Below, piece after piece: positions 1-59,962 of a stretch of DNA of 64,000 nucleotides. Both the position numbers and the translations under genes were made by a program. The notes beneath the pieces were generated by a model, which worked only from the letters and a program-made list of their open reading frames with translations, was not told the DNA's origin and made no database searches. Each line of letters begins with the position of its first letter. Position 1 is the first letter of the stretch. Source of the DNA: a bacterium (lineage in GTDB: Bacteria; Bacteroidota; Ignavibacteria; UBA10030); NCBI GenBank assembly GCA_043803945.1, contig JAZDJN010000101.1, positions 12,790-76,789 on the forward strand. Direction: 5' to 3'.

Positions 1-1427
1 CCAAGCAATGCCCCTACCATCAGATTGATTTGCTTCCTTGGAGAAACCGGTCCACCCGGCACAACGGCAGGGTCGATGATATCGATGTAGCCGAATTCCG
101 ACTGCTCATTGATGGTCGCTTCGTTATACTTTTCTTCCACCAATAAATATAACTTTTCATTACTTAAGCGTGACCGTTGAAGTCTGGCATATTCGATACT
201 CCTTTGCGGGATGCGTTCGAATTGAGACTCGTATTGTTTGATCACCTCTATGAGAGCTCGTTTTTTTGCGAGCTTCGATTGCCGGTCAATATTGATTTCT
301 GTAATCTTCGCTTTGAGCAGGCTCAGGTACGCTGCAGGATCGTTCGCACCGGTGACTGTCTGTCCCGGAATGAGAGATTTGAGATACTCATTCGTTCGCT
401 TGGTAAGTTTTTCCCGAATGCCATTGATTTTTTCATTTAACTCATTAAGAGTTTGAGTATAAATTTGCTGGCCGGTGAGACTCGGATTTTTTGCGATAAA
501 AACGTCGCGCTCTACTTCGACTTTAGCAAGCTCATTCTGCATTTGGCGGATGTAGGGATCGTTTGCCTCACCCATCGCGCGTGCGACATTCGGTTCGACC
601 TTTTTCAGTTCTTCCTGGTACGAAGAGAGAGTATTTTCGGTGGCCTGAACTTCAATATCGATTGCATCGCGGTTTGCTTCGAGTTGAGCGAGCTGATCGA
701 TCACCTTTTTTGCCTCATCGTCGAGTGAGACAATTCCTTCCGTTTCCATGTATTTTTGGAGATTTTGCTCGGCGTTGTCGAGATTCCCCTGCCTGGATTT
801 TAGTTGTTCCTGAAGAAAAACACGAACCGTACGCGATCTTGCCCGGCTTTGAAACATGTTACGATCATAATAAGCGGCGGCGTATGTATTTGCGATGATC
901 GCAGCACATTCTGCTGAAGCACCCTTAGCAGTAATTTTAATTACATCGGAATCCCGTACAGGTTCGAACGTGATGGTAGTTTCGAGTCGAGAAATAACTT
1001 CTGTGACCGTGGCAAATTCTCTCTCGAATGCTGCATTTTCAGGTGGTGCAATAATAGGGAGTTTTTGCAGTTTGGTAGAGTCTGTGAATTTCTTTTCGAG
1101 GAGAGCTTTTGCGACGACTTCAGCTATAGAACGAGATTTGAGAATCTCGAGTTCATTTTTGATGTTCTTCTGGTCGCCAAAACCGCTAATATCAAAAAGA
1201 AAACCCCCGCTGGACCTCTGCCCTTTTGTATCGACAAGGACGCTCGTGGTTGCTTCATAGATCGGTTGCCTGGTGTAGGTATAAAGAACAGTTGTTACCA
1301 TAGTGAGGAAGAAGATGGAGAGGATCCACCATTTCCCTCTGAGGATAATCTGGAGGTAATCCTCGAATCGAGGTTCTTGATTAACACCATTTGAGTTGAG
1401 ACTATAGCCTTCTTTACCATTATTCAT
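1..1427 (-). CDS. Wzc/GumC-family polysaccharide co-polymerase (N-terminal part; runs off the window edge)
   Basis: Absent from the ORF track because it has no stop in the window. Manual translation from ATG 1427: MNNGKEGY...FEDYLQIILRGKWWILSIFFLTMVTTVLYTYTRQPIYEATTSVLV (Wzz N-terminus and TM1), a coiled-coil region, then KLYLLVEEKYNEATINEQSEFGYIDIIDPAVVPGGPVSPRKQINLMVGALLG (Pro-rich motif and TM2). Confidence 0.88.
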   Translation of the reverse strand, partial: MNNGKEGYSLNSNGVNQEPRFEDYLQIILRGKWWILSIFFLTMVTTVLYTYTRQPIYEATTSVLVDTKGQRSSGGFLFDISGFGDQKNIKNELEILKSRSIAEVVAKALLEKKFTDSTKLQKLPIIAPPENAAFEREFATVTEVISRLETTITFEPVRDSDVIKITAKGASAECAAIIANTYAAAYYDRNMFQSRARSRTVRVFLQEQLKSRQGNLDNAEQNLQKYMETEGIVSLDDEAKKVIDQLAQLEANRDAIDIEVQATENTLSSYQEELKKVEPNVARAMGEANDPYIRQMQNELAKVEVERDVFIAKNPSLTGQQIYTQTLNELNEKINGIREKLTKRTNEYLKSLIPGQTVTGANDPAAYLSLLKAKITEINIDRQSKLAKKRALIEVIKQYESQFERIPQRSIEYARLQRSRLSNEKLYLLVEEKYNEATINEQSEFGYIDIIDPAVVPGGPVSPRKQINLMVGALL

Positions 1428-1589
1428 GAAATAACTTTCCCCTTGTTAGAACTTCAATTCTAGCGATTAAATGTACAAAAAAGTGATGCCATCGGCAATG
1501 AAATTTTATAGTAGAATATTAGCCGCCAAGATTTTTTGATTAAAAGATTGAACGATTAAGAATAAATAATATTCGAAAGATTGAACCGC

Positions 1590-1704
1590 CCTGTCTGCCG
1601 ACCTGTCCCTGACTGCGTGACGAACACTTCGTCAGGCAGGCGCCGAAGCGTAGCGTAGGCGGAAGTGCCTTCAGCCTGACTGCCGGAGCGGCAGCGCAGG
1701 CAGG
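1590..1704. repeat. Nested palindromic micro-elements (33-nt type A containing 29-nt type B containing an inverted type A)
   Basis: cctgtctgccga[cctgtc[cctgactgcgtgacgaacacttcgtcaggcagg]cgccgaagcgtagcgtaggcgga]agtgccttcag...cgcaggcagg; the same parts recur at 2094-2184 and 6306-6400. Confidence 0.8.
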
Positions 1705-2093
1705 CAAATCGCCAACGACGCCAAGGATAGAATTTATGAAAAGAATAAGAGTGTAAATACACTACTTCACTCAGGAGATGCATCCAGAGCAAGGACAACG
1801 TATAAAGTAGTGGTACGATGCTTGGACAGCAGTGATACGCATCAATATTTCAACACCCGTAAAAAGAGAAAGGTTTCTGACATTGGGTGTGTGGTGCATG
1901 ACGATGATAGGCATCACGTTGAAGCGAAAAAACAGAATGAGTTACGCGTATAAGTCAGGAGTAGAACTCCCTTCCAGTATCAAAGTTAAGACTTGGTATC
2001 TTCTAAGAAAAAATTACTAGTTTTTTCCTTGCTAGCCCGAAGGCATCCCCACCAGACCTGCCCGACTACGCCGTTCAGGCGGGACGCATGGCG

Positions 2094-2184
2094 CCTGTCT
2101 GCCGACCTGTCCGCCGAAACGATTTATCCGCCGGAGCATGGCGTAGGTGGAAGTGTAGGCGGAAGTGCTTGGCACGCAGGCAGG
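2094..2184. repeat. Three-level nested palindromic micro-elements
   Basis: cctgtctgccga[cctgtccgccgaaacga[tttatccgccggagcatggcgtaggtgga]agtgtaggcgga]agtgcttggcacgcaggcagg; removing the inserts gives 33-, 29- and 29-nt hairpin units. Confidence 0.85.
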
Positions 2185-2390
2185 GGCTGGTTGCCGAGGG
2201 CGAAGATAAAATTTGAGATATCTTACGTAAAGAGGAAGGGAACTATGTAATGAGAACGATAGGGTGAGGGCTGGAAGCAAGAGAGGCTTTTCTGATGATG
2301 GTTGGGAGCGGAGCGCCTTGCCAGAAGCGTGTCTATCGACCTCCCAGCAGTTGAGGGTGAGGATGAAATGCATGATATCTACCAGCAGCA

Positions 2391-2565
2391 TGCTCGGCGA
2401 GACGCCTTCGCTCTAGGATCTTAGGAAAGAAGAGATAGGTTCCGAACTTTTTTCTTCTTTGAAACCACCCCTCTCCCGTGAACGCGTTATTTGCGTCCCG
2501 TGCTTTATGCGGGACGGGAGAGGGACCTATGAATTACAATCGACAGGGTGAGGGGTAAATGCAGG
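2391..2565. repeat. ~175-bp composite intergenic repeat, copy 1 (contains a BoxC-like CCCTCTCCC..GGGAGAGGG..GGGTGAGGG element)
   Basis: Closely matches 3627-3802 (gacgccttcgct..tagg...ccgaactttttt...ccctctcccgtgaacgcgtt...gggagaggga...cgacagggtgaggg). The two copies flank the metallophosphoesterase gene. Confidence 0.85.
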
Positions 2566-2662
2566 CGGGGACGCCTTCGGTCCTTTTTTTCTACTCGTTC
2601 AGAATTCTCCTCACGATAATATCTCTTTCCTTGTACGTCCTTTTTCCCTATTTTTCCTACGT

Positions 2663-3364
2663 ATGCGAATTGCGATCCTATCAGATATCCATTCTAACTT
2701 ACCCGCGTTGCTTCAAGCCTTCTCCATTATCGATGAGCAGCGCATCGATGAAATTTATTGTCTAGGAGATATTGTGGGCTACGGAGGGAATCCGAACGAA
2801 TGTGTCAATCTTATAGGCAAACATGCTACACATTGTGTGCTGGGTAATCACGATCTTGGGGCTATCGATCTTTCTCAATCTGAATATTTTACACGGCCTG
2901 GCAAGATTGCAGCGGATTGGACGTATGAAGTCCTGACAGAGGAGAATTTCGAGTTTTTAAAATCACTCCCCTATAAACAAGAAACAAAGTTCGCCACTTT
3001 GTCTCATGCAAATCCCTCTGAACCTGAAGGTTGGAGTTATGTAGTATCCCTCGAGGATGCGGAGCCGCAATTTGAGAATTTCAACTCACCGGTGTGCTTC
3101 ATAGGGCACTCGCATATCCCCTTTATATGTGGTGAAGATTTAAGGACTCTCACTTTAAAGAAAGGTACGCGAGCATTGATCAACGTTGGGAGTGTGGGTC
3201 AACCACGCGATCATAATCCACAATTGAGCTTCGGAATCCTGGACACTAGTGAATGGACATATAGGAATATTAGATCTGATTATGATATTAGCTCAGCAGC
3301 TGAAGCAATTGTGAGAAATGGGCTGCCGAGATATTTGGCTGAGAGGTTGTTTAAGGGAGTGTGA
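2663..3364 (+). CDS. Calcineurin-like metallophosphoesterase (YfcE/MJ0936 type)
   Basis: Metal-binding motifs SDIHSN, LGDIVGYG, GNHD, GHSH and NVGSVGQPRD. Confidence 0.93.
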   Translation: MRIAILSDIHSNLPALLQAFSIIDEQRIDEIYCLGDIVGYGGNPNECVNLIGKHATHCVLGNHDLGAIDLSQSEYFTRPGKIAADWTYEVLTEENFEFLKSLPYKQETKFATLSHANPSEPEGWSYVVSLEDAEPQFENFNSPVCFIGHSHIPFICGEDLRTLTLKKGTRALINVGSVGQPRDHNPQLSFGILDTSEWTYRNIRSDYDISSAAEAIVRNGLPRYLAERLFKGV

Positions 3365-3365
3365 T

Positions 3366-3445
3366 TGAGTATCAGTAAAGAGTAGGGAGTATTAAGTAAG
3401 AAGCAGAAAGAGTGAGCAGACAGTAGAAGGCAGATTGCAGACAAA
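3366..3445. repeat. Degenerate purine-rich 7-nt tandem repeat
   Basis: agtaaag agtaggg agtatta agtaaga agcagaa...; similar tracts near 5140-5245, 7900-8090, 9945-10030, 10720-10800 and 21000-21060. Confidence 0.7.
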
Positions 3446-3626
3446 GAAAGATTTTGTACGACAGACCTCTATAACGTGCTCTATTGAGTTTTCCTTTTCA
3501 TGCTCTGCGGGCCAGCCCGAAAGAACACCCAGTGTGAAGTAGTTGGCACGTTCTCTCTGATTGTTCCATCTAGCCCGAATGTGTCTTACCGAGGGCGAAA
3601 ACGAATCCCAAGCTATCGCTTGACTT

Positions 3627-3802
3627 GCTCGGCGGGACGCCTTCGCTTTAGGAGATTAGGTAAGAAGATTTAGGTCCCGAACTTTTTTTCTTCTTTGAAA
3701 CATCCCTCTCCCGTGAACGCGTTTTTTGCGTCCTGTGCGTTACGCGGTACGGGAGAGGGACATTCGATTTATCATCGACAGGGTGAGGGTTAGTTAAATG
3801 CG
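3627..3802. repeat. ~175-bp composite intergenic repeat, copy 2
   Basis: Direct repeat of 2391-2565. Confidence 0.85.
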
Positions 3803-3895
3803 GAATGAGGAAGTGTGAATGGGGAATTGTAAGCGGGACACTCCCCCTATGCCGCATTTGAGCCTAGTGGAAAAGGGAGATTGTTATACGCATGG

Positions 3896-4050
3896 TGGAT
3901 CCCCGACAAATGCACTCGGGGAACACTACCAGTGGTCAGAAAATAACAAGCAAAAATCAGAGTTCCCAAAATGACTCTGTTTGGGATCTACTATATGGTA
4001 ATGTACTACAATGCATAGTAGATCCCCGACAAATGCACTCGGGGAACACT
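3896..4050. repeat. Cluster of three REP-like hairpins in alternating orientation (gtgttccccgagtg-N-gtcggggatct family)
   Basis: gatccccgacaaatgcactcggggaacac occurs twice, with agttcccaaaatgactctgtttgggatct between them; same family as the array at 32731-33920. Confidence 0.85.
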
Positions 4051-4080
4051 GGTGAGATTTTAGGCAAGGCTTTTCCATCA

Positions 4081-4150
4081 CCCTACCCTCTTCCGCTCAC
4101 GGGAGAGGGACCTGCGTTCTATGAGCGACAGGGTGAGGGTTGGTTAAATG
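4081..4150. repeat. BoxC-like element with an empty loop
   Basis: ccctcttccgctcacgggagaggg...cgacagggtgagggttggttaaatgcg; sister copies at about 2468, 3703, 6208 and 6467. Confidence 0.75.
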
Positions 4151-4189
4151 CGAACAGGTAGATAGGAAGCAGGAGAACCGTTGGAATGC

Positions 4190-4612
4190 TCAATCGGAAA
4201 GATGGAAATGCTTCACTATTGCGGTATAAAAAACTTCGAGGTCTTTAAGATTCGATACTAAAATTTTCCTTAGGATATCGAGATTGATTTCTTGATACTC
4301 ATGAACTGCAATATTTCGAAATCCAATCATTCGTTCCATCTTTTCACAGAGATCGTGGTCGATGATGGTGTTATCGCGAAGAAAGCGGAAATGTTCTTTC
4401 ATATCCTGCGGCACACCAAATCCTTCCGAAGCAACGATGTGGGCTGCAAGATCGATTGCTGCTTGAACGGCACGCTGGAGATTGAGTACGAAAATATCTT
4501 GCCGATCGATATCATCGAGGCGGTTTGGATCAAGAGCTGTGACGAGGCTGATACGCTTGAGACACCTTTTAATAATCCCGATTTTCGCGAAGACAACATC
4601 ACGATCAACCAT
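4190..4612 (-). CDS. hepT: HepT-like HEPN ribonuclease toxin (DUF86), type VII TA
   Basis: HEPN Rx4H motif in GFRNIAVHEY; overlaps the upstream MNT gene. Confidence 0.9.
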   Translation of the reverse strand: MVDRDVVFAKIGIIKRCLKRISLVTALDPNRLDDIDRQDIFVLNLQRAVQAAIDLAAHIVASEGFGVPQDMKEHFRFLRDNTIIDHDLCEKMERMIGFRNIAVHEYQEINLDILRKILVSNLKDLEVFYTAIVKHFHLSD

Positions 4613-5033
4613 AGATTAGCCCCTCCAGGATACGGTGTTCAATCGGCCTTCTCACAATTTTTAGGTCATGATAGTTGTTGAACGTGCTCACAATGAATTG
4701 GTTGACTTTCCGTTCGTCCCGCACAAAAATCTTTTTACCTTTCCGCAGCACCTGCATACAAATAATGGGTGAAGAGATATTCATAAGCATCAGATCGATC
4801 GAATCATGGCGGAGAAGATTCGCTACTTTAATTGTTGCTCTAGCGCGATAGTACAGCGGGTAATCGGCTTTTTCGACCTTCTCCTCATAAACGAGGAGTG
4901 CAATATCGATATCCTCAGGGGTGTCCCTGGTCAGTATTGAACCAAAGAGAAACAGAGCAGCGATTTCCTGGTGTGATTCCGCGAAACTACACAACTGCTG
5001 CTCTACCTCATCCAGAATCATTGGTGCTTTCAT
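4605..5033 (-). CDS. mntA: MntA-like minimal nucleotidyltransferase antitoxin
   Basis: LFLFGS...EDIDIA (GS-x-DxD) motif; paired with the HEPN gene. Confidence 0.88.
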   Translation of the reverse strand: MKAPMILDEVEQQLCSFAESHQEIAALFLFGSILTRDTPEDIDIALLVYEEKVEKADYPLYYRARATIKVANLLRHDSIDLMLMNISSPIICMQVLRKGKKIFVRDERKVNQFIVSTFNNYHDLKIVRRPIEHRILEGLIYG

Positions 5034-5276
5034 ATTGCTTATGAATTATTAATGGTGAAGACTGCGGATTGTTTCTCAGTATTTCCGCTTGTTTAAATAT
5101 ACGACATAATGAGCGATTGGTGCAAGGAGTGACCTTTAAATATTGAATTGGGAATAATAAATGGTGAATTAGGGGACAGGAAACGGTGAAGAGTAAAAAG
5201 TATTGAGTAGGAAGTAGAAAGAGAGAGCAGAGAGCAGAAAACAGATTTAAATTTCGTTCCTTTTCACACTCGGCGA

Positions 5277-5309
5277 CCTGCCCGACGAAACACGCAGTGT
5301 GAAGTCGGG
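5277..5309. repeat. 33-nt CCTG-hairpin micro-element inserted without target duplication
   Basis: ctcggcga[cctgcccgacgaaacacgcagtgtgaagtcggg]gacgccttcgc, compared with the empty site ctcggcgagacgccttcgc at 2393-2411. Confidence 0.8.
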
Positions 5310-5420
5310 GACGCCTTCGCTTTAGGAGGTGAGGAAAGATTGATTTTTTCCGCGTAGTAGATCCACTGTCCACCGGAGGACGCCGAAATGATTTTTATCG
5401 CGTGAGAACTGGGGAACCGA

Positions 5421-5687
5421 CTAGGGAAAATATCTATACACTTCTTTTCTCTGTAAGCACCGGACAAATGTCACCGTATTATGTTCTATTGTGATACCGA
5501 TACGGTATTGACCAATACGAATTCGGTAATACTTCCCCTTTGTTGAGAGCTTTTTGAGATTCTGGATTTGCTGCGGAGTAGAGGCTTGTTCAACGTTGAT
5601 AATAACTCGTTCAATTTCCCGTAGAATATTCTTCCCGGAAATAATACGGATATCTTTTTCAAAACTTTCTTTGAAGAGAAGATTCAT
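5421..5687 (-). CDS. RelE/ParE-family toxin
   Basis: 88 aa, basic, with the RelE/StbE signature YYRIRIGQYRIG...RKEVYRYFP. Confidence 0.9.
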   Translation of the reverse strand: MNLLFKESFEKDIRIISGKNILREIERVIINVEQASTPQQIQNLKKLSTKGKYYRIRIGQYRIGITIEHNTVTFVRCLQRKEVYRYFP

Positions 5688-5893
5688 TTCCGGATCTTTA
5701 GAATATTCAATACTTTTGCTTTGGAGATCGTCTTTGTCTTTTCTCCCTCCTGAATAGCCCGCGTGAGAGCGATATCTTCAAACACATCCAATACCGTTTC
5801 GCGGATGAAATCCTTATTTTCTTCAAACACTTCGCTCACTGCGTCTTTCAGCAAGACTTTGAGCTTAGTTTCTCGAACCGCTGTTGTTGGCAT
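5684..5893 (-). CDS. Putative antitoxin of the RelE module
   Basis: 69 aa with EDIALTRAIQEGEKT; 4-nt overlap with the toxin. Confidence 0.8.
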   Translation of the reverse strand: MPTTAVRETKLKVLLKDAVSEVFEENKDFIRETVLDVFEDIALTRAIQEGEKTKTISKAKVLNILKIRK

Positions 5894-6004
5894 ATTATGT
5901 TCCTTTTGATTATTAGTAATATCGTAATCAGGTATCTGATATGCAATATCTGGAAGAGTGAAGATTCCCGTCTCACGTCTCTCATTTTACTTCTCTCCTG
6001 CATT

Positions 6005-6670
6005 TAGGGTCGGGAGGAGATCTCCTCGCCACCAGCCCGCCATGCGTTCTAGCGGGGAGGCGAGTCCATCGACCTCCCAGCCTTAGACTGACCCCCTCAC
6101 CCTGAAGGACACTCCCTCTTGACCACTGATCCCTGATCACTGATTACATTGATTACGCTGATTGCAGTGGAAGGGGAAGAAATTCTTTCGTCTGGTTTTC
6201 TTTGCCCTACCCTCTTCCGTTTACGGGAGAGGGATCGAGCCCGCCCGCCTGAGCGCTTGCGGTCGGGCGGGGGTGAGGGACAGTCAAATGCGGAATTGGG
6301 AATGGCCTGCCTACCGGCATGTCCCTGCCTGCGTGCCAAGCACTTTGGCAGGCAGGCGTCGAAACGAAGTGCAGGCGGAAACACGCAGTGTGAAGTCGGG
6401 GACGCCTTCGCTTTAGGAGGTGAGGAAAGGCGAGTTGAAGATCGGTACCTTTCTTCAGCTAAGGATTCCCCTCTCCCGTCAACTTGCCCGCTACGGCGGG
6501 CGGGAGAGAGACCTTTGATTTACCATCGATAGGGTGAGGGTTGGTTAAATGCGGAATTGAAGAAATATGGAAATATGAGAATGTGGGAGGTTTCTCTCCC
6601 TTCTTACCTCTCATCCGTTCAGGTCGGGAGCAGACTTGTCCGCCGTCTTTTTGGCGGAGCTCCCTCCCAG
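6005..6670. repeat. Intergenic mosaic of BoxC-like, REP-like and nested CCTG/CTTG micro-elements
   Basis: BoxC-like copies at about 6208-6280 and 6467-6545; nested elements at 6306-6400; cttgcccgctacggcggg in a BoxC loop (6483-6500); cttgtccgccgtctttttggcgga inside gggagcaga|gctccctcccagc (about 6626-6671). Confidence 0.75.
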
Positions 6671-6712
6671 CAAATAGTCAGGGTCGGTCATGGACCGACC
6701 CCTGAAGAATTT

Positions 6713-7879
6713 TTATTTTGAAAGGAACTCGCAGATAGAATCTACCACGTAATGAATCTGCTCCGGTGAAAGCTCGGGGTAAATAGGCAGCGCTAAAGAA
6801 GTATTCGCTGCACGGGCAGATTTCGGATAGGCGTTTTGATCCGGTTTCAAATCGGTAAAGCATTCCTGCTTATGGAACGGGACGGGATAATAAATTTCTA
6901 CTCCAATCTGTTTCTCCTGAAGAAACTTCCTTAACTCATCCCTCTTCTCAATTCGGATGACGTACTGGTTATAAATATGATGGTTCTTATGGCCGCTTGA
7001 TTCATAGACTGCCTTCGGCAGCAGCACTTTGTTCTTTGCATCGTATTCCAGTTTCCCGGTCTCTGTCGCAACACCCTTGTCAATAAACAACTTCGTATAA
7101 AGAGCGGCGTTCTTTCTTCTTCCTTCCGACCAGGAATCAAGATGCGGAAGTTTCACATTTAATACTGCGGATTGGATTGCATCGATCCGGAAATTTCCAC
7201 CGATAACCTTATGATAATACTTTGGCTTACCACCATGGACTCTGAGAATCTTGAGAGATTCACCGAGGGCTGGATCATTCGTCACGACTAATCCGCCATC
7301 GCCAAAACAGCCAAGATTTTTACTCGGGAAGAATGAATAACATCCGATTGTACCAATCGTGCCAACCATTTTTCCGTCTTTGTACTGAACGCCAATTGCC
7401 TGAGCGGCGTCTTCTACCACAGGAATGTTATACTTTGCACTGATCTGCATGATCTCTTCCATTGCAGCGCTCTGGCCAAAGAGATGGACAGGCAAAATCG
7501 CTTTTGTGCATGGAGTGATTTTCTTTTCAATCTCTGCCGGATCGATATTAAAGGTGACGGGGTCGATATCGCAAAGGACAGGTGTTGCACCGAGGCGGAA
7601 GACAACACCGGCCGTAGCAAAGAATGAGTAATCAGGTACGATCACTTCATCCCCGGCTTTAACCTTGAGCGCCATTAAGGCAACCAAGAGGGCATCCGTT
7701 CCAGATGAGACTCCGATTGCATATTTACAGCCAAGGTACTCGCACAGGCTCTTCTCCAGTTTTTCTACTTCAGGGCCAAGGATAAAGTATTGGGATTCGG
7801 CGACGCGGATGAGGGCAGCATCTAGTTCTGTTTTTAGCGTAGCATATTGTGCTTTAAGGTCTAATAAGGGTACGTTCAT
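6713..7879 (-). CDS. DegT/DnrJ/EryC1/StrS PLP-dependent sugar aminotransferase (WbpE/WlbC-like)
   Basis: Motifs SSGTDAL, VHLFGQ, EDAAQAIG and SFFPSKNLGCFGDGG (PLP lysine). Confidence 0.95.
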   Translation of the reverse strand: MNVPLLDLKAQYATLKTELDAALIRVAESQYFILGPEVEKLEKSLCEYLGCKYAIGVSSGTDALLVALMALKVKAGDEVIVPDYSFFATAGVVFRLGATPVLCDIDPVTFNIDPAEIEKKITPCTKAILPVHLFGQSAAMEEIMQISAKYNIPVVEDAAQAIGVQYKDGKMVGTIGTIGCYSFFPSKNLGCFGDGGLVVTNDPALGESLKILRVHGGKPKYYHKVIGGNFRIDAIQSAVLNVKLPHLDSWSEGRRKNAALYTKLFIDKGVATETGKLEYDAKNKVLLPKAVYESSGHKNHHIYNQYVIRIEKRDELRKFLQEKQIGVEIYYPVPFHKQECFTDLKPDQNAYPKSARAANTSLALPIYPELSPEQIHYVVDSICEFLSK

Positions 7880-7899
7880 AGGAAGCTCGAAATGTTAGT

Positions 7900-8330
7900 T
7901 GTGATTAGTGAATGGTGAATAGTAAATAAAAAATAGTGAAGAGTGAAGAGTAATGGGTAGTAAGTATAAAGTAGTAAGTAAAAAGATAGCACAAAACAGA
8001 TAGCAGTGAGCGGTAGATAGCTTGCCCGCTGTAATACGAAGTGTGGAGGCGGGTAAACAGTGTACCGCGCACAGTAGACAGTAAAAAAGATGAAGAGAAA
8101 ATGGATTTCAGCATATTGGTCAGGGGTACCTGATTATTTGTTGCTTTTGCCGGTACTCAGGCCGGAAGCAGACTTGTCCGCCGTCTTTCGCGTTTTTTGC
8201 GTCCGCCATTTTTGGGGTGGATTGGCGGAGCTCCCTCCCAGCTATAAATTATTCACCACAGAGACACTGGGAGCACAGAGTATTTTAATAATTTATTTTC
8301 TCCTCAGTGCTCTCTGTGACTCTATGGTTT
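7900..8330. repeat. Heptamer tract with an inserted 33-nt micro-element, a doubly filled REP-like hairpin and a 9-mer inverted repeat
   Basis: 7-mers at 7900-8090; cttgcccgctgtaatacgaagtgtggaggcggg at 8021-8053; nested element at 8160-8242; accacagagacactgggagcacagag...ctcagtgctctctgtgactctatggt at about 8255-8328. Confidence 0.72.
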
Positions 8331-8337
8331 ATCTTTA

Positions 8338-8937
8338 TTAAACCTCTTTGACTAAATTGTTTTCGAGTTTATAGGTTTTGCCAGACTTGGGGCAATTTGC
8401 GATGCCGTTGGCATCGAATTTTAATCTCACGCCGGCTTCGCTCATCGAACCAACGATGCGGGCAGCATTTCCTACCACGAGGGCAAAGTCGGGGATATCT
8501 TTTGTGACTACTGCTCCGGCTCCCACAAAGGCAAAGCGGCCGATTGTGGTACCACAGACGATTGTACTATTTGCTCCGAGTGAAGCAGCCTCCTTAACGA
8601 GAGTCTTAATATAGAATGCTGCACCAACCTGTGGATATTTCGAGAGCGTATCACGGATATTGGTAAAAACCATGGAGGGACCGCAGAAGACATAATCTTC
8701 CAGCGTAACACCCTCGTAGACTGAAACGTTATTCTGTATCTTTACAAAATTACCGATGGTGACATTATTGCCCACGTTTACATTTTGCCCGAGGACACAT
8801 TACTTACCGATTTTGGTTCCAGATTGCACGTGGCTGAAATGCCAGATCTTTGTTCCCTCTCCGAGTTCAACGCCATCATCAACAACTGCATGCTTATCGA
8901 CATAGAAATTCTTTTTTTCTGCCTCATTCTGTGACAT
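8338..8937 (-). pseudogene. WbpD/WlbB-like hexapeptide-repeat N-acetyltransferase with an in-frame stop
   Basis: From ATG 8937: MSQNEAEKKNFYVDKHAVVDDGVELGEGTKIWHFSHVQSGTKIGK*CVLGQNVNVGNNV...; TAA at 8800-8802 (codon 46), and the frame continues into ORF 8338..8775. Confidence 0.9.
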
Positions 8938-9912
8938 GTTTTTTTAATCCTTCCTGAGCACACTCCAGTATTTGTAATACTTCAAAGGCATGCTCGCCGT
9001 CTGTTCGTGGTTGCGTATTATTAAGTACTGACTCATAAAAATGCCGATGCTCTGCTGTGAGAGCAGGTGTATCTCCAAATGAAATGACTTGAAAATCCTC
9101 ATCGAATTTCTCGAGAAAACCATTTATTTTTTTGAATCCTTTTTTATAGAACTTCAACTTATCTGCCTTCACACTATCCTCAAAGACAACCATACCCTCT
9201 TCACCGATAACAACCAGCCGGTGCTCTTTAAAAGGATGGAGCCAGCTAACAAAAATATGGGCATGAACATTGTTTGGATAGGTCAGGTAGGTAATGGTGG
9301 TGTCTTCGATATCATCCTGAATGAAATCACCACCGTGAGCATCTGTCGTTAAAGGAGAATTGCCCGTGAGAAATTGAATAATGGAAATATCGTGAGGCGC
9401 AAAACTCCAGAGAATATTCTCCTCACTTCGAATTGTCCCTAAATTCAAACGATTACTATAAATGTATTGAAGCTTGCCGATCATACCCACTTCCATCATG
9501 CTCTTTATCTTCAGGATTGCAGGATGATGGAGAAGAACATGGCCGACCATCAATTTTAATTTATACTTCGCCGCCAGATCTACAAGGTGGCGGGCTTCCG
9601 ATGAATAGAGTGTGATCGGCTTCTCAATCAGGACATGCTTACGATGCTCAAGGCATTTCTCTGCAATCCAAAAGTGAGTTTCTGCCGGTGTAGCGATAAC
9701 AACCGCATTGAAACTGGGATTCTCTAAAATATCCTCATACCGGGTGGTGAACTGTATAGCAGGATTAACGGCTTTGACGAGATCTCGTGATTTGGGATCA
9801 GGATCACAGGCAATAATGTTTTCCGGTCCTAAAAGACTAGATGCGGTTTTGACATGGTTAATACCCCACTTCCCATAGCCAATCAACCGAGTTTAATGTT
9901 TTGATACTCCAT
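8924..9912 (-). pseudogene. Gfo/Idh/MocA oxidoreductase (WbpB/WlbA-like) with a 1-nt deletion near the 5' end
   Basis: ATG 9912 with an upstream GGGGG reads MEYQNIKLG then TGA; restoring one T in ggttgatt joins it to LIGYGKWGINH (Rossmann GxGxxG). EKP and APHD motifs follow. The span is 989 nt, one short of a multiple of 3. Confidence 0.8.
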
Positions 9913-10079
9913 TGTATTTCCCCCACTGTATATTTTGACATAGAATGACAGTTTGGTAAATCGTAAATAGTGTTAGTAAACGGTTTACTGTATACAGTGT
10001 ACAGTAGACAGTTTATAGTGAACCGTTCATCATAAATCCTGTATCATGAAGCACGAGCCGAGTATTGCCTATCGTGATA

Positions 10080-10526
10080 TTAAAGCCTCTCTAATTCCTC
10101 GATGTCGAGGAGGTCTTGTTTTCGACCTGCGATTTTTTTGCTCGTAATAAGGTCTTGTTTAGAAATATAAAAGACCTCTTGGTTTCCAAATTTCCCTGTT
10201 ACTTTTCGATCCCACGTTTCATGAAAATCAATCCCGGATATTCCAATAATCAAGTCAATGCGAAGAGGTGGATATCCCAACTGAATCACAGTATTGGGAT
10301 TCATAAGATCATCAAGCGTGATATCGAGACTACCAAATCCAAAATCCTTCAAGACAAGGATGATACGCTCAGCATTTTCTCTTTCCGTACAGAGAAGAAT
10401 ATCAATATCGCGCGTGAAGCGCGGCCGAGCGTGGATAGCAAATGCATACCCACCAACGATTAAATATTTCGCTTTATGATTGTTTAATAATTCGAAGAAC
10501 TCTTCGAAATCCTTCGGCACCATCAT
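10080..10526 (-). CDS. Nucleotidyltransferase-fold protein (DUF6036/AbiEii-like)
   Basis: YLIVGGYAFAIHARPRFTRDIDIL and KKIAGRKQDLLDI motifs; start adjusted to MMVPKDF. Confidence 0.85.
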   Translation of the reverse strand: MMVPKDFEEFFELLNNHKAKYLIVGGYAFAIHARPRFTRDIDILLCTERENAERIILVLKDFGFGSLDITLDDLMNPNTVIQLGYPPLRIDLIIGISGIDFHETWDRKVTGKFGNQEVFYISKQDLITSKKIAGRKQDLLDIEELERL

Positions 10527-10680
10527 ATTCATTTTCAAACTGATTCATTTTTGACCATTGTTGGCGAAGCGTCTCAAGAACCATGAGCTTATAGTCAATC
10601 GTTTGACTTCTCCAGAAATTCAACTCGTCAATCTCTTGTTTGGAGTCGTTGAGCGGGTATTTATTGATTTTTTTATTCAT
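10474..10680 (-). CDS. Small partner protein (putative antitoxin) of the nucleotidyltransferase
   Basis: MNKKINKYPL...FWRSQT...GFRRVLRIIKQS; overlaps the NTase start. Confidence 0.65.
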   Translation of the reverse strand: MNKKINKYPLNDSKQEIDELNFWRSQTIDYKLMVLETLRQQWSKMNQFENEYDGAEGFRRVLRIIKQS

Positions 10681-10872
10681 AGTAAAAACCGACAATTTAC
10701 ATTTTCCAGAGATTATAAATGGTCAATGATATACAGTTAACGGTTTGCGATAGACAGTTCACCGTCAAAAGTTCACAGTATACAGTTTACTGTAATAGAT
10801 TTCCTAAAACCTCTCTCGTTGTCATCTTGAGTATCCATTGTTGATTCTCTTGCTTCTGCATAGGTTGGCACC

Positions 10873-11370
10873 TCACCGTTCATCCTTCAGCAAATCTTTC
10901 ATCTTCTTCCATAAATCTTCGAGATCCTCGGAGATTAGTTTGACATCTCCCAGGACCGGCATAAAGTTCGTATCGCCTGACCAGCGTGGGACAATATGAA
11001 AATGAACATGCTTATCAATTCCTGCACCGGCGACTCGTCCTAAATTGGCCCCGAAGTTAAAACCATGCGGGTCACTAATTTCTCTCAAGGCATTCATCCC
11101 CATCGAAGATGCCCTCATTATTTCAGCGGTTTCTTTTGCAGTCAGCGACGTAAAATCACCGGTATGGCGATAGGGTACCACCATAAAATGTCCGCTATTA
11201 TAGGGAAAGCGATTAAGAACGATGAAACAGAACTCTCCTTTCCAAACCACAAGGTTTTTGGATGTCAACCTTCCTTTTGGCACACTGCAAAACAGACAGC
11301 TTCTGGTTTTTTTTCCATTCGAGAAGGATTTTATATAGGTCGAGCGCCATGGAGAATGCAGTTTCTTCAT
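10873..11370 (-). CDS. HIT-family hydrolase (Ap4A phosphorylase/FHIT-like)
   Basis: CLFC, LNRFPYNSGHFMVVP and the histidine triad HVHFHIVPRW. Confidence 0.93.
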   Translation of the reverse strand: MKKLHSPWRSTYIKSFSNGKKTRSCLFCSVPKGRLTSKNLVVWKGEFCFIVLNRFPYNSGHFMVVPYRHTGDFTSLTAKETAEIMRASSMGMNALREISDPHGFNFGANLGRVAGAGIDKHVHFHIVPRWSGDTNFMPVLGDVKLISEDLEDLWKKMKDLLKDER

Positions 11371-11402
11371 CGGCTACTCTGAGAAATTGCAATAAAACGC
11401 CA

Positions 11403-11770
11403 TTATTGTTCTGCTTTCTGTTTCTTGAGCTTCTCTTCTAAAAATACAAGATCAAGCTTATCTTTTTCTCGAACCGTCTGCTTGAGTTGCCATAGTAATT
11501 CTACCGAGGCAAATGGAATTACTACACCTCGATTTCTACCATTTCTCTCAGGGATGCAACTTCGTTATACGCGTACCCACCAGCGGAAATTAACAGATCG
11601 ACGACAATTTCATCGGCGATTTTAACGACCATATAATTTATTAGATCATCTGGTGTCGCCTCGAGCGACGCCTTATCTGGTAAGATTGAAAGAGCATCAC
11701 AGACTTTGAGTAAATCTTTTAACTCTGGTGGTCTTGATTCGAGTCTCGTGTTATCATGCTTAGTACCCAT
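11403..11770 (-). pseudogene. Nucleotidyltransferase pseudogene (apparent internal deletion plus frameshift)
   Basis: SRPPELKDLLKVCD joins directly to ALSILPDKA with no GG..DxD segment; after EIE a 1-nt shift continues GVVIPFASVELLWQLKQTVREKDKLDLVFL to TAA at 11403-11405. Confidence 0.7.
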
Positions 11771-11937
11771 TGCTGGCTTTCTTCGAATGTCTTAAATCGA
11801 TAGACTCCTTTCGGAATAAAGGGATTCCCTTTTCGAAGTCTGGCAACCAATGCAAGAAATCCGCGTGCCTTTTCCAGATTGATCTCTGTGGGTTGCCGTC
11901 GTCCAATAATCTTTATGGGCTGTATTTCTGTTTTCAT
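11719..11937 (-). CDS. Small basic partner protein of the NTase module
   Basis: 72 aa with PKGVYRFKTFEES; overlaps the NTase pseudogene start, the same layout as 10080-10680. Confidence 0.7.
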   Translation of the reverse strand: MKTEIQPIKIIGRRQPTEINLEKARGFLALVARLRKGNPFIPKGVYRFKTFEESQQWVLSMITRDSNQDHQS

Positions 11938-11997
11938 CGGATAATCTGGTATTACTTTTCGTCATTCACTGTAAGATATTTCAGAGTCCTCACCGAA

Positions 11998-13317
11998 TTA
12001 TATTCCATCTCCCAACAACTCAATTTTCTCTCTTCCAATCTTGATATTCTTTGTTGCATTACGAGTATCAACAATCCTTTTCGAATTCTTCACGATAAAC
12101 TCATAATCGAACTCTGAGTGATCCGTAGTGATCACAACACAATCAGCTTTCTTTAAAATATTTTTTGTCAGGGATACCGATTTGAAGTGTGCTCCATCGA
12201 AATCAAGCTCCTTGACGAAGGAATCGTGATAGGAGATATTCCGCGCACCATCGGCATGGAGCAGTTCCATGACTCTGATTGCCGGAGAGTGGCGGATATC
12301 GTCCACATCGCGTTTGAAGGCGACGCCGAGGAAGAGAATATTTGCGTCTCTGAAACTCTTCGGCATCATACTCATTTCCCGAAGGATCATATTTTTCACA
12401 TAGAAGGGCATATTCTCGTTGGTCTCTGCAGCCAGGGTGATAAAGTTGGTGTGGAAATCATACGCATGGGCAAGCCATTTGAGGTAATAGGGATCGATCA
12501 AGATACAGTGGCCGCCAATACCCGGGCCGGGATAAAAAGGCATAAATCCGAAAGGTTTTGTTGAAGCCGCCTCGACAACTTCCCACATGTTGATTCCACC
12601 CATCCGATCGCAAAGCAAGGCAAGTTCATTCACCAGGGCAATATTCACGCTGCGGAAAATATTCTCCAACAGTTTTTCCATCTCGGCAACTTTAGGGTTG
12701 GAAACCGGAACGACCTTTGCAATAACCTGAGAGATAATGAGGCAAGCCAGTTCTGTACATCGGGCAGTGACTCCACCGACAACAACGGGGGTGTTGGCGG
12801 TTGTCCATTTCTTATTCCCCGGATCGATTCGCTCAGGAGAGAAGGCGAGGTAATAATCTTTTCCAACAATCAACGAAGATTTTTCCAGGATCGGGAGCAC
12901 ATATCCCTCTGTCGTATTCGGGAATGTGGTGCTCTTCAGAATAATAATATGATCTCTGCGCAGCCGTGGAGCGATCTGGTTTGCCGCATCGACTATAAAC
13001 GAGATATCTGGTTCTTTGTTTAGAGTGAATGGTGTGGGCACACAGATAAAGATTACATCGAGGTCGCTCACCTCCAAATAATTATTAACGGCGCGGAGGT
13101 TTCCTTCCTTCACTGCTTTATTGAATTTGTGCTCCTCAACGTCGTCGATATAATTCTTCCCTGCATTGACAGCATCGATTTTTCTTTTGTCGATATCGAT
13201 ACCGACTGTCTTATATCCTTTTGCCGCATACTCAACTGCAAGGGGCAGTCCGACATATCCTAATCCTACAATGCCGATTGTTACTTTCTTCGATTTTATT
13301 CGTTGTTCCAGTGTCAT
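11998..13317 (-). CDS. Nucleotide-sugar (UDP-GlcNAc-type) 6-dehydrogenase, WbpA/WecC family
   Basis: Motifs GLGYVGLPLA, ICVPTP, FSPERIDPGN, GPGIGGHCI and VVITTDHS. Confidence 0.95.
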   Translation of the reverse strand: MTLEQRIKSKKVTIGIVGLGYVGLPLAVEYAAKGYKTVGIDIDKRKIDAVNAGKNYIDDVEEHKFNKAVKEGNLRAVNNYLEVSDLDVIFICVPTPFTLNKEPDISFIVDAANQIAPRLRRDHIIILKSTTFPNTTEGYVLPILEKSSLIVGKDYYLAFSPERIDPGNKKWTTANTPVVVGGVTARCTELACLIISQVIAKVVPVSNPKVAEMEKLLENIFRSVNIALVNELALLCDRMGGINMWEVVEAASTKPFGFMPFYPGPGIGGHCILIDPYYLKWLAHAYDFHTNFITLAAETNENMPFYVKNMILREMSMMPKSFRDANILFLGVAFKRDVDDIRHSPAIRVMELLHADGARNISYHDSFVKELDFDGAHFKSVSLTKNILKKADCVVITTDHSEFDYEFIVKNSKRIVDTRNATKNIKIGREKIELLGDGI

Positions 13318-13434
13318 ATTGCTATTCTCATTAATGTTATCGTTTATATTTTACCACATAGTTCAAAAAGGGCAGAACACTATATCATGCACTATCGTAT
13401 CAATACTGCGAAAAACCACCACTACAAGCTCTTA

Positions 13435-14174: not shown

Positions 14175-14210
14175 ACAACTTTCAACGTCTCGCTTCGCAT
14201 TAGAATTTCT

Positions 14211-18137: not shown

Positions 18138-18293
18138 GGGTGTCACGGTCCCCCGCAAAAAACACGGGGCGGGCATACCGTGACACTTCACATCTCGATG
18201 ATTTCACTTGATGCGTCACGAAATCCCTGCCTGCGGCAGGCAGGCTGCCCGCCTCATTTGGATCTTTTGTGGCAGGCGGGGGTTCGTGACGCC
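18138..18293. repeat. Two GTCACG..CGTGAC hairpins carrying inserted micro-elements
   Basis: gtgtcacggt[ccccgcaaaaaacacggggcggg]cataccgtgacac and gcgtcacgaaat[c[cctgcctgcggcaggcagg]ctgcccgcc...ggcggg]ggttcgtgacgc; an empty relative, ggtgtcacggctaggccgtgacacc, is at 62376-62400. Confidence 0.7.
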
Positions 18294-20881: not shown

Positions 20882-21069
20882 GAATAGTTTTTTCCCAATG
20901 CGTGTAACTTATTTATTGGCTTGTAATTATAAGAAAAGAGTATCTGAAAGTCAATCCGGAATTTCTCTAACTCATTGGAAAACAAGGGAATGAAGAGGAT
21001 AGGTGATAAGTATTAAGTCGAAAGTAGAAACTATAAAGTAAGAAGAGATAAGCGAAGTTAAATCTCCAA

Positions 21070-21133
21070 GTGATCCCCGAACGTTTCTGTCGGCCTGCCC
21101 ACCGTAGCAAAGCGAAGGTGGGGGATCTATCAT
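21070..21133. repeat. REP-like hairpin with a 29-nt micro-element inserted at gtcgg|ggatct
   Basis: gtgatccccgaacgtttctgtcgg[cctgcccaccgtagcaaagcgaaggtggg]ggatctatcat; insert at 21094-21122; empty form at 33522-33557. Confidence 0.8.
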
Positions 21134-32730: not shown

Positions 32731-33100
32731 AGTTCCCCGAGTGTCCGACTCGATTCAATGAATCGAGTCGAGACCTCGACGGATTCGGGGCTTCTGTCGG
32801 CTTGCCCCGACCTGTCCCGACTTGTCCCGATGCTTTATATCGGGATGCTTTATATCGGGATGCTTTTTATCGGGGGGATCTACTATGCACTACCTTTTCG
32901 CAGATCCCAAACAAAGACATTTTGGGATCACTGGCTCTTTTCTATCTGCTACCCAATACTCGATGAGTTCCCCGAGTGCCTGCCCCGAATTCTTTTTTCG
33001 GGGCTTCTGTCGGCTTGCCCCGACCTGTCCCGACTTGTCCCGACGTTTTATGTCGGGATGATCTATATCGGGATGCTTTTTATCGGGGGGATCTATCATG
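32731..33100. repeat. BIME/REPIN-like hairpin array, left of the GIY-YIG gene, with triple self-nested 25-nt elements
   Basis: Units gttccccgagtg..gtcggggatct and agatcccaaacaaagaca.tttgggatc; nested blocks at 32801-32875 and 33014-33088. Confidence 0.9.
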
Positions 33101-33216: not shown

Positions 33217-33512
33217 ATGCTATCAGCAAAGGATACTTCTACATTGTTTCAAACTACACAAGCACAACTCTCTATTGCGGATCCACTGTTGATCTTGACT
33301 CAAGGATCCGCCAGCACCGATCCGGTGAGGGAAGCAAATTCTCAGCAAAATATAACTGCAAATATCTTTTATACTATGAAGAATATGATACTCTCGAAGA
33401 GGCCCTCCTACGCGAAAAGAGGGTAAAGCGCTGGAACCGTGAGTGGAAAATGCGCTTGATCAAATCGATCAATCCAGATTTAGAAGACCTTTGGGAAAAA
33501 GAATGGCTATAG
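33217..33512 (+). pseudogene. GIY-YIG nuclease (stand-alone, ~98 aa) with a 1-nt frameshift after the start
   Basis: Missed by the ORF track. The frame from 33228 reads KGYFYIVSNYTSTTLYCGSTVDLDSRIRQHRSGEGSKFSAKYNCKYLLYYEEY...REKRVKRWNREWKMRLIKSINPDLEDL and has no in-frame ATG/GTG/TTG upstream; ATG 33217 joins if one A is added in gcaaagga. Confidence 0.85.
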
Positions 33513-33520
33513 CACAAACA

Positions 33521-33920
33521 AGTGTTCCCCGAGTGCCTTAGTCGGGGATCTATCATGCAGTGTAGTTCATTGGCCATTTGGCAGATCCCAAACAAAGACA
33601 CTTTGGGATCGCTGGCTCTTTTCTATCTACTACCCAACACTCGATGAGTTCCCCGAGCGCCTTAGTCGGGGATCTATCATGCAGTGGAGTTCATTGGCCA
33701 TTTGACAGATCCCAAACAAAGACATTTTGGGATCGCTGGCTCTTTTCTATCTGCTACCCAACACTCGATGAGTTCCCCGAGTGCCTGCCCCGAATTCTTT
33801 TTCGAGGCTTCTGTCGGCTTGCCCCGACCTGTCCCGACTTGTCCCGACGTTTTATATCGGGATGCTTTATATCGGGATGCTTTGTATCGGGGGGATCTAT
33901 CATGCAGTGTAGTTCAATGC
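33521..33920. repeat. BIME/REPIN-like hairpin array, right of the GIY-YIG gene (~125-bp tandem units)
   Basis: gttccccgag(t/c)gccttagtcggggatctatcatgcagt...cagatcccaaacaaagaca.tttgggatcgctggctcttttctatct.ctacccaacactcgatga occurs twice, then a third copy carries the nested block at 33818-33892. Confidence 0.92.
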
Positions 33921-59847: not shown

Positions 59848-59962
59848 TTTCCCCCTTTCGTAAAGGGGGCAAGGGGGATTTTGCGTGGAGTTGGAGTCAT
59901 AATGAGATTTATCTGCTGCATCCTGAAGAATCCCCCCGTCCCCCTTTGAGAAAGGGGGAAAA
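59848..59962. repeat. Inverted pair of CCCCCTTT-N3-AAAGGGGG..GGGGGATT hairpin repeats
   Basis: ccccctttcgtaaagggggcaagggggatt ... aatccccccgtccccctttgagaaaggggga. Confidence 0.8.

Follow-up and report, generated by a model that had tools for sequence, protein, structure and literature searches.

We found that a 64,000-nt stretch of an Ignavibacteria genome of lineage UBA10030 (assembly GCA_043803945.1, contig JAZDJN010000101.1, positions 12,790 to 76,789 of the forward strand; hereafter the window) carries about 30 short hairpin units, each headed by a tetranucleotide tag, typically CCTG or CTTG (CYTG). These units have sharp ends, insert without target duplication, nest in one another and are spread over two phyla of the Fibrobacterota–Chlorobiota–Bacteroidota (FCB) group with no linked gene. 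They are probably non-autonomous mobile hairpins that resemble the repetitive extragenic palindromic (REP) sequences, form an undescribed tag class and have the single hairpin as the inserted piece. The analysis followed up a prediction made from the letters of the window alone (the original prediction), which covered positions 1590 to 8242 and proposed a family of tagged hairpin elements of fixed sizes that nest reciprocally and are driven in trans. Every sequence string quoted in it was present where it had been placed.

Unit anatomy and delimitation

A unit was defined as a 4-nt tag, CCTG or CTTG, directly followed by a 6-bp stem with at most one G·T pair, a loop and the return arm. Clusters were decomposed by repeatedly removing the innermost unit, a procedure that we call peeling, and a second pass was run with a relaxed tag. 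The general build was the tag C(C/T)TG, a GC-rich stem of 6–9 bp starting with YCC, a loop of 3–21 nt that sets the family by its length, and the return arm, the end of which is the exact 3′ end of the unit. All of the window units were intergenic relative to the open reading frames (ORFs) accepted as genes, multi-copy, imperfectly palindromic and short, and 13 of them lay beyond the range of the original prediction (Table 1). The predicted fixed sizes held within one sequence family but not overall: besides 33-, 29- and 25-nt units, the window contained units of 18, 19, 20, 23, 24 and 37 nt, those in other genomes measured 19–42 nt, and the overall span was 18–42 nt. When single units were folded as DNA, z scores ranged from −2.9 to −4.6 with the exception of the copy at 8021 (z −1.35). 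In non-A units the tag stood unpaired ahead of the 6–9 bp stem, and the 33-nt type A paired from end to end.

Type A across genomes

The type A pattern CCTGNCTGNCNAAGTGNNNNNNNCGCAGNCAGG, which matched the window twice against 0.00 matches expected from 100 shuffles, was scanned against 185,579 species genomes. We obtained 45 loci (46 copies) from 22 assemblies, all of which were metagenome-assembled genomes (MAGs), and none of the loci overlapped the window. By record title, 16 of the 22 assemblies were labelled Bacteroidota (Bacteroidales, Phaeodactylibacter, Chitinophagaceae, Roseivirgaceae and unclassified), five Ignavibacteriota and one plainly 'bacterium', and the G+C content of the loci ranged from 38 to 61%. 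Searches for type A in plasmid and phage collections gave chance-level matches or none, and Rfam gave no match on the units, either over the window at the gathering cut-off or over positions 1–9000 at E ≤ 1.

Across 42 distinct flanked copies, the information content was 2.0 bits inside the 33-mer, including positions 5, 22 and 23, which the pattern leaves free, and dropped to at most 0.6 bits at the first base outside either end, placing the limits of conservation exactly at nt 1 and nt 33. The expectation that boundaries are sharp across genomes was thus borne out. It could be argued that the units are terminal or internal parts of a larger, already known insertion sequence (IS) or miniature inverted-repeat transposable element (MITE) and that the nesting reflects ordinary insertions, given that type A copies do lie in within-genome host repeats of up to 546 nt and that a Y1_Tnp gene is located 1.2 kb from the copy in locus L027. 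However, BLAST similarity between genomes stopped within ~8 nt of the 33-mer, with wholly different flanks beyond, no IS-length repeat was found around the units, no ORF family recurred, and no transposase domain was present in the window. The units also lack the MITE-like combination of terminal inverted repeats (TIRs) and duplication, and the 27-nt inverted repeats that the L027 gene possesses are unrelated to them. Because similarity ends ~8 nt away and the host repeats do not exceed 546 nt, we conclude, in agreement with the original prediction, that the units are not IS ends; an origin from larger elements is most improbable.

Insertion without target duplication

The window contains both states of one insertion site. 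As originally proposed, the comparison of positions 2390–2411 with 5269–5320 gave an exact 33-nt insert, a type E unit, with zero duplication. The empty site is part of a host repeat of ~180 nt (2391–2568), whose second copy (3626–3803) supplies another empty site near 3626. We searched for further empty sites in the window and all loci with queries that fused the 11 nt on the left of a unit to the 11 nt on its right, two substitutions being allowed. An empty counterpart at a duplication length of 0 was obtained for 19 of 74 distinct perfect-stem sites, and none was obtained at lengths of 1–6. The window and four assemblies (DAOORA, CAYQKY, CAYXEE and SBGR) each contained filled and empty copies within the same genome, and two further pairs were found between related assemblies. 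In every pair, the CYTG tag belonged to the insert and the difference was exactly one hairpin. Direct repeats of 2–3 nt flanking the units were in excess (14 versus 4.6 expected; 7 versus 1.2) because the units insert into T runs, and the empty sites retain the whole run. Discrete insertion without target duplication is therefore supported by the filled/empty comparison together with the sharp ends.

In locus L034 (minus-strand offset 5351), a 25-nt derivative of type A without the 8 nt between two GGCA repeats was found at a host site that is taken by full 33-mers in other copies of that repeat.

Nested clusters

The arithmetic of peeling was exact, each removal returning the outer unit to a family length of 33, 29 or 25 nt. 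The cluster at 1590 is 115 nt long (33 + 29 + 33 + 20), where the pieces of the outer unit, and likewise the position of the 20-nt unit, which is the weakest of all, were read from the remainder after peeling. The cluster at 2094 is 91 nt long (33 + 29 + 29); its type B serves as the empty-site counterpart for the inverted type A insertion, and the 29-mer with a degenerate tag, placed after ...ACGA in the loop of type B, had been missed by the original prediction. Peeling reproduced the two proposed arrangements in which type A is split after nt 12 by type B, at 1590 and 2094, and a 29-mer of type B size is split after nt 6 by an inverted type A, at 1608–1640 and 6324–6356.

The third cluster, at 6306 (33 + 29 + 33), had been described as a type E unit split in the same manner. 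The 3′ 21 nt of this copy are identical to the copy at 5277 and are separated by a 29-mer from the 5′ part, but the 5′ 12 nt differ at four positions and are unpaired, and the split is only partly clean. Both of the type E copies described as intact, at 5277 and 8021, were present, but the latter has diverged (25 of 33 nt identical; one of the stem changes is compensatory and one a wobble). Reciprocal nesting itself was confirmed by peeling and by locus L021, where the architecture of the window recurs in a 29-mer interrupted after nt 6 by an inverted type A and after nt 12 by a 25-mer.

Replication slippage could mimic nesting by creating paired tandem duplications that flank a hairpin, and Tandem Repeats Finder did break the nested 25-mers into two adjacent arrays, of 10 nt (2.5 copies) and 15 nt (~3 copies), and reported two 12-nt arrays for the 2094 cluster. 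Slippage, however, cannot put an inverted 33-mer of another sequence inside a 29-mer, and it accounts neither for identical units in unrelated flanks over two phyla nor for pairs of empty and filled paralogues set apart by a complete unit. We regard this explanation as hardly credible.

Elsewhere in the window, units were found in hairpins of other kinds. The host hairpin CCCTCTCCCG...CGGGAGAG of the 18-nt unit at 6483 can be read without interruption near 4086 and 6205, a 10-bp host hairpin holds both the 37-mer and the 19-mer at 18225 in its loop, and the triple-nested 25-mer array at 32801 occupies TGTCGG^GGATC, the same site sequence as the unit at 21094. The 24-nt unit at 8173 is split by a 33-nt insert (8189–8221) that consists of two hairpins without a CYTG tag; this decomposition was read by comparison with 6635–6658, as the peeling script did not resolve it. 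Hairpins of the family CCCTCTCCCG...CGGGAGAGGG were seen at 2470–2530, 3703–3760, 4086–4115, 6205–6235 and 6466–6510, either empty with a 4-nt loop or filled at the junction of loop and 3′ arm, where the fill is a ~32-nt two-hairpin insert without a CYTG tag or the 18-nt CTTG unit.

Table 1. Hairpin units, an empty insertion site, H-type hairpins and the nuclease ORF in the window
Position	Strand	Feature	Method or support
1590..1704	+	Four-unit composite; outer unit a type A 33-mer (1590-1601, 1664-1674, 1695-1704)	
1602..1663	+	Type B 29-mer (1602-1607 + 1641-1663), after nt 12 of type A, split after nt 6	
1608..1640	-	Inverted type A 33-mer; stem positions 9, 21, 29 compensated	
1675..1694	+	20-nt CCTG unit with 5-bp stem, within 3′ half of outer type A	
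2094..2184	+	Type A 33-mer (2094-2105 + 2164-2184) with two nested 29-mers	Peeling
2106..2163	+	Type B 29-mer (2106-2122 + 2152-2163), not interrupted at nt 6	Peeling
2123..2151	+	29-mer with degenerate tag TTTA and one G·T pair	Relaxed-tag pass
2390..2411	+	Empty site of type E insertion, within ~180-nt host repeat	
3898-4047, 32903-32929, 33524-33734, 62256-62343		H-type hairpins	
5277..5309	+	Type E 33-mer, filled site	Peeling, folding, empty/filled comparison
6306..6400	+	E-like 33-mer (6306-6317 + 6380-6400), 5′ arm decayed, two nested units	Peeling
6318..6379	+	29-mer with tag CATG (6318-6323 + 6357-6379)	Relaxed-tag pass
6324..6356	-	Inverted type A 33-mer, after nt 6 of its host	Peeling, folding
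6483..6500	+	18-nt CTTG unit in loop of CCCTCTCCCG...CGGGAGAG hairpin	Peeling
6635..6658	+	24-nt CTTG unit in loop of GGGAGC...GCTCCC hairpin	Peeling, folding
8021..8053	+	33-mer akin to type E, tag CTTG	Peeling; weak fold
8173..8229	+	24-nt CTTG unit (8173-8188 + 8222-8229), split by 8189-8221	
18225..18280	+	37-nt CCTG unit containing a 19-nt palindromic CCTG unit (18226-18244)	Peeling
21094..21122	+	29-nt CCTG unit at ...TGTCGG^GGATC, 3′ arm of H-type hairpin	Peeling, folding
32801..32875	+	Three 25-mers nested in each other, each after nt 10 (...CCCGA^)	Peeling
32979..33003	+	25-nt CCTG unit in loop of H-type hairpin	Peeling, folding
33014..33088	+	Second triple-nested 25-mer array, just upstream of GIY-YIG ORF	Peeling
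33222..33512	+	Single-domain GIY-YIG nuclease ORF, candidate enzyme	Pfam GIY-YIG, E = 1.5e-15
33784..33892	+	Decayed 25-mer (from 33784) and third triple-nested 25-mer array (33818-33892), downstream of GIY-YIG ORF	Peeling
59851..59873	-	23-nt CTTG unit	Peeling

Insertion sites

Co-oriented units were located just 3′ of ...CGA at the junction of 5′ arm and loop of the host unit; in types A, B and E this position follows nt 12, and in the 25-mers it follows nt 10. The left flank ended in CGA at 10 of 31 non-A sites, several of which are copies of one event and not all independent. Two type A copies in the window and one in L021 follow nt 6 of their host unit (CYTGYC^), and related sites ending in ...TGTC were found in L005, L012 and L035. 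T runs were also occupied by type A, with a left flank ending in TTT at 12 of 34 sites. In assembly SBGR, type A follows GGTTC in the T-loop of 3′-fragment copies of tRNA-Leu that adjoin the intact tRNA and, by reading, a CCTG unit in L002 splits the T-loop of a tRNA-Leu fragment next to an intact tRNA-Leu.

Folding of 12 empty sites gave a mixed picture without a loop rule. Divergent, tandem and convergent intergenic regions contained units alike, and the orientations in tandem gene contexts (four antisense versus one sense) were too few to use.

Units inside coding sequence

A check suggested with the original prediction, for in-frame 11-aa inserts derived from the 33-nt types, was positive in one genome. 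Locus L001 encodes a 322-aa protein ending in a type IX secretion system (T9SS) type A sorting domain (TIGR04183), in which a type A 33-mer adds 11 codons, in frame across the junctions as SLPAEVHGTQAG, between the first two strands. Among the paralogues of this domain, three have a 27-mer within a host hairpin in the same loop, one has another hairpin-like insert there, and two are uninterrupted. The sorting-domain loop of L001 may be a hot spot for the colonization of coding sequence by hairpins, and by adding loops to T9SS sorting domains the units remodel genes. Viewed over positions 1390–15056 of the locus, at least five paralogous T9SS sorting domains contain different in-frame hairpin-derived inserts in the same loop and two contain none.

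Structure, strand and tag statistics

The CYTG tag headed 53 of 618 distinct perfect 6-bp hairpins with YCY[CG] arms, and 33 of 598 when 33-mers were left out, compared with an expected share of 2/256 and counts of 3–15 for control tags, in a sample chosen for containing type A. Covariation in the type A stem was observed at positions 9:29 (CG 15, AT 1, TA 1, 2 mismatched) and 11:19 (GC 14, AT 2, GT 2, other 1), and position 9 also covaried with position 21 in an alternative inner hairpin. The ratio of G·T to A·C on the tag strand was 28:19, and hairpins taken without regard to their tag gave 657:955 (Fisher p = 0.01), although the one-mismatch hairpin set behind these counts is noisy. The covariation and the G·T excess fit the folding of one particular strand, as single-stranded DNA (ssDNA) or as RNA.

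Both features would also be compatible with a transcribed structure, and type A is nearly invariant over two phyla, as would be the case for a selected binding site, with many copies lying in genome-specific multi-copy host repeats of 100–546 nt. The units might accordingly be an immobile conserved motif, for example a protein-binding or RNA-structure signal, that has spread through duplication of larger repeats. Paralogous host repeats, however, exist with and without the unit and differ by exactly the unit; units are inserted within one another, within tRNA T-arms and within coding sequence; and the unrelated flanks between genomes, the lack of an Rfam match and the occurrence in all types of intergenic context likewise speak against such a signal, which we consider very unlikely.

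Search for the enzyme

The prediction that the window contains no transposase was confirmed, in that a Pfam scan of 49 window ORFs detected no classical transposase domain and no integrase or HUH domain. When 1,632 ORFs of the window and the loci were clustered all against all, no linked gene recurred near type A, and the largest ORF family near it was present in 4 of 23 genomes and included no window ORF. A scan of the 508 kb of loci for the HUH...Y motif identified one gene, in L027 (5548–6261; Pfam Y1_Tnp, E = 2.9e-9), encoding a 237-aa protein similar to REP-associated tyrosine transposases (RAYTs); with its inverted-repeat bounds (5548–6286), it is of the TIR-flanked type. The further suggestion to look for an enzyme gene flanked by the same hairpins led to the GIY-YIG ORF in the window but to no such Y1 gene in the window or the loci.

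The GIY-YIG ORF has 96 codons, had been missed by the original prediction and is the only nuclease-like ORF in 572 kb (window and 45 loci) with CYTG units within 500 nt on both sides. It contains no in-frame ATG, GTG or TTG, and ATC at 33222 aligns with the Met of its sole close homologue, a 57% identical protein of a Flavobacteriales MAG obtained by a word-based search of 5.8 billion proteins; the ORF either has a rare ATC start or is a frameshifted gene. The nearest ATG, at 33217, is one base out of frame, and an existing gene call starts later, at ATT, and drops the first Tyr motif. The ORF is surrounded by hairpins of a different family, termed H type (GATCCC...GGGA[AT]C), which have GTAG-like feet (GTAG, ATAG, GCAG), number 10 copies in the window and alternate in orientation around the ORF and at two other clusters in the manner of bacterial interspersed mosaic elements (BIMEs). 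Positions 33524–33786 form a 124-nt tandem unit of the H-type region.

It is conceivable, if unlikely, that this GIY-YIG protein, or relatives of it in other genomes, is the cognate enzyme, which would bind the ssDNA hairpin and cut beside it, with host ligation or repair completing both excision and insertion. The flanking CYTG units favor this assignment, as do the three copies of a 108-nt composite with triple-nested 25-mers that bracket the ORF and look like the result of intense local insertion. The protein is a single GIY-YIG domain of ~90 aa, the Atlas clusters closest to it consist of GIY-YIG nucleases found most often in Bacteroidota, and Ssn proteins of like size have their own flanking hairpin repeats and cut ssDNA upstream of the hairpin (PMC11893778). 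On the other hand, the single homologue makes the subfamily look rarer than type A, the Ssn motif fits no CYTG hairpin (one unrelated window match versus 0.23 in shuffles), and the hairpins directly beside the ORF are of H type, with the CYTG units inserted in them. The missing canonical start codon and the best relatives in PDB, which are UPF0213 proteins, also count against the assignment, and a tblastn search of all 45 loci with the protein returned only itself, a weak argument given that a trans-acting gene need not be near. Moreover, GIY-YIG enzymes hydrolyse DNA without a covalent intermediate, and strand transfer would need other factors.

Other features of the window

Purine-rich heptamer tandem repeats were seen at 3361–3410, 5186–5221, 7901–7985, 20996–21052 and 23663–23695, for example GTGAATA (7.3 copies) and AAAAATG (4.6 copies), by reading mostly just upstream of minus-strand genes, and similar tracts flank the type A copy in L045. 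Rfam detected a SAM-II (SAM_alpha) riboswitch at 31384–31459 on the minus strand (37.6 bits versus a gathering cut-off of 36), directly upstream of a B12-dependent methionine synthase gene (27779–31366). Toxin-antitoxin-type modules are dense (4190–5033, 5433–5896, 10080–10538, 13887–14174, 14510–15193 and 26287–26672) and comprise HepT/nucleotidyltransferase, ParE/RelB, DUF6036 with another nucleotidyltransferase, AbiEii and HicA/HicB; these modules are located both inside and next to a polysaccharide-biosynthesis region (Wzz, DegT, UDP-glucose dehydrogenase), and hairpin clusters occupy the gaps between them. Four consecutive DUF11-repeat surface proteins are encoded at 37099–57673 on the minus strand, the largest of which has 3,984 aa, OmpA domains and repeat units of 360 nt.

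Mechanism and significance

As non-autonomous mobile hairpins, the units would move as folded ssDNA, and an enzyme encoded once elsewhere in each genome would cut and join them in trans, reading the tag plus the stem. The places of insertion include other hairpins and the units' own relatives, T runs, the T-loops of tRNA fragments and, in frame, protein-coding loops. Movement in trans has good support, with no ORF family recurring near type A and no IS-size repeat around the units. The originally proposed CCTG/CTTG-tagged system driven in trans is retained to the extent that the tag is part of the insert, the units are non-autonomous and no gene is linked to them. The most likely candidate for the enzyme, which we put forward tentatively, is a RAYT-type HUH Y1 nuclease-transposase, an idea to which plausibility is lent by analogy and by a RAYT subclass of Bacteroidetes that has non-GTAG hairpins. 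More doubtful is the possibility that the single 18–42-nt hairpin is the complete substrate of an unrecognised enzyme of Bacteroidota and Ignavibacteriota that reads CYTG together with the stem and pastes a folded single strand, free of duplication, at set positions in other hairpins, which would make a third system in addition to GTAG/RAYT and CGTC/Ssn. Improbable, by comparison, is an Ssn-like GIY-YIG single-strand nuclease acting together with host ligation, and the likelihood left over by this and the RAYT-type candidate falls to an enzyme of unrecognised kind.

Several observations weigh against mobile REP-like hairpins of this kind. The window and the 45 loci yielded no identified enzyme and no gene with demonstrated action on the units, and the Y1_Tnp gene of L027 is flanked by 27-nt inverted repeats (96% complementary) and not by CYTG hairpins. 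No conserved tetranucleotide was found in the left or right flanks, unlike in IS200/IS605 targets. A host helix of at least 5 bp was present at 10 of 77 sites, compared with 3.2–3.4 in controls with maxima of 9 and 11, and the preference for hairpin loops outside the window is modest. The 45 loci are all MAGs and were picked for type A, such that copy numbers and enrichment cannot be extrapolated from them, and many of the counted sites are duplicated copies of one event. In the REPIN model, only inverted doublets are mobile and single REPs are immobile remnants (Bertels and Rainey, PMC3116915), whereas the inserted pieces here are single units, and Table S1 of PMC6006769 lists no CCTG or CTTG foot.

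If there is a third tagged-hairpin system, its members would be the smallest self-contained mobile DNA units known, with a natural inserter of ssDNA oligonucleotides. Tagged hairpin repeats are abundant in bacteria, yet no more than two tag classes have been described, one of them with an enzyme that was not discovered until 2025. If the FCB group has a third class, it would be unusually clean material for studying the movement of such repeats, with a single hairpin, base-exact ends, recurring positions and a 33-mer shared across phyla, and the predicted enzyme, recognising and joining folded ssDNA, would be of interest for single-stranded DNA tools. The units also break MAG assemblies, because many loci end at or near a unit, and both gene remodelling and assembly breaks matter for the annotation of Bacteroidota and Ignavibacteriota genomes.

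Comparison with known systems

A literature search by concept, with subscription journals outside its coverage, returned no description of these units, and a search by unit sequence strings returned primer coincidences only. Term look-ups in PMC3733652, PMC12306157 and PMC6006769 gave no mention of CCTG/CTTG-tagged hairpins.

REPs have been sorted into GTAG and CGTC tag superfamilies, are cut by RAYT at the 5′ tetranucleotide foot when tagged, and are reported as insertions within palindromes as well as genes (Di Nocera et al., PMC3733652). The CYTG units share with the REP/REPIN-RAYT system a hairpin of 20–40 nt whose 4-nt foot, at the 5′ base of the stem, is unpaired (PMC3733652, PMC6006769), local density, extragenic preference, G·T pairs in the stem, occasional in-frame copies in genes, insertion inside other palindromes and a trans-acting enzyme encoded once per genome, which for the CYTG units is a prediction. 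They differ in the foot, which is GT[AG]G in REPs, and in the inserted piece, which is an inverted doublet in REPINs (PMC3116915) and a single hairpin here. In addition, the CYTG units nest reciprocally at fixed positions, and no RAYT gene flanked by them was found in the window or the loci.

Closer in taxonomy is RAYT subclass 2.6 (Bertels group 5), which is dominated by Bacteroidetes and has atypical flanking hairpins without GTAG and with feet of 3–5 nt such as GCTG, GCTA(G) and CTGT (Quentin et al., PMC6006769). One of these, a 33-mer of Pedobacter saltans, has the foot CTGT, an 8-bp stem starting with CC and a 13-nt loop. In contrast to the CYTG units, however, the 68 rows for this subclass in Table S1 of PMC6006769 include no CCTG or CTTG foot, no consensus in the whole table starts with CCTGC/T or CTTGC/T, and neither nesting nor precise insertion is reported in the portion of the article considered.

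The second comparison is with the CGTC REPs (dRS3/NTS, RPE-4/6), for which GIY-YIG Ssn proteins of ~90 aa cut ssDNA upstream of CGTC-type hairpins that flank their own genes (Chenal et al., PMC11893778). The arrangement of oriented tagged hairpins around a gene for a ~90-aa single-domain GIY-YIG protein is alike, and so is the in-frame insertion into genes in Rickettsia (PMC11893778, PMC3733652). This property of the Rickettsia-type palindromic elements (RPEs) is matched by the type A copy of L001 with its 11 additional codons. Unlike in the CGTC/Ssn system, no hairpin here fits the motif HGTCWY...RNCYNB, the stems start with YCC instead of being AT-rich, and the loops are 3–21 nt instead of 4–5 nt.

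Small dispersed repeat (SDR) elements, those of Elhai et al. 2008, reportedly also nest in one another. The SDR4-6 elements of Nostocaceae, called 'very small mobile repeated elements', are units of ~20–27 nt that were judged mobile, as are the hairpins described here, but they have been reported only in Nostocaceae (PMC5861425). MITEs, with TIRs, target duplication and lengths of 70–300 bp, differ from the CYTG units, which are 18–42 nt long and cause no duplication. IS91-type rolling-circle elements insert without duplication next to CTTG or GTTC, and the two T-loop insertions after GGTTC resemble this, whereas in our case the CYTG tag lies inside the inserted piece and no Y2 HUH gene was seen. 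Finally, the IS200/IS605 family shares with the CYTG units the lack of target duplication, the recognition of a hairpin and a tetranucleotide by the hairpin foot (PMC6006769), but its members have two different end hairpins and insert 3′ of a conserved target tetra- or pentanucleotide, whereas a CYTG unit inserts with no conserved flank and consists of one hairpin.

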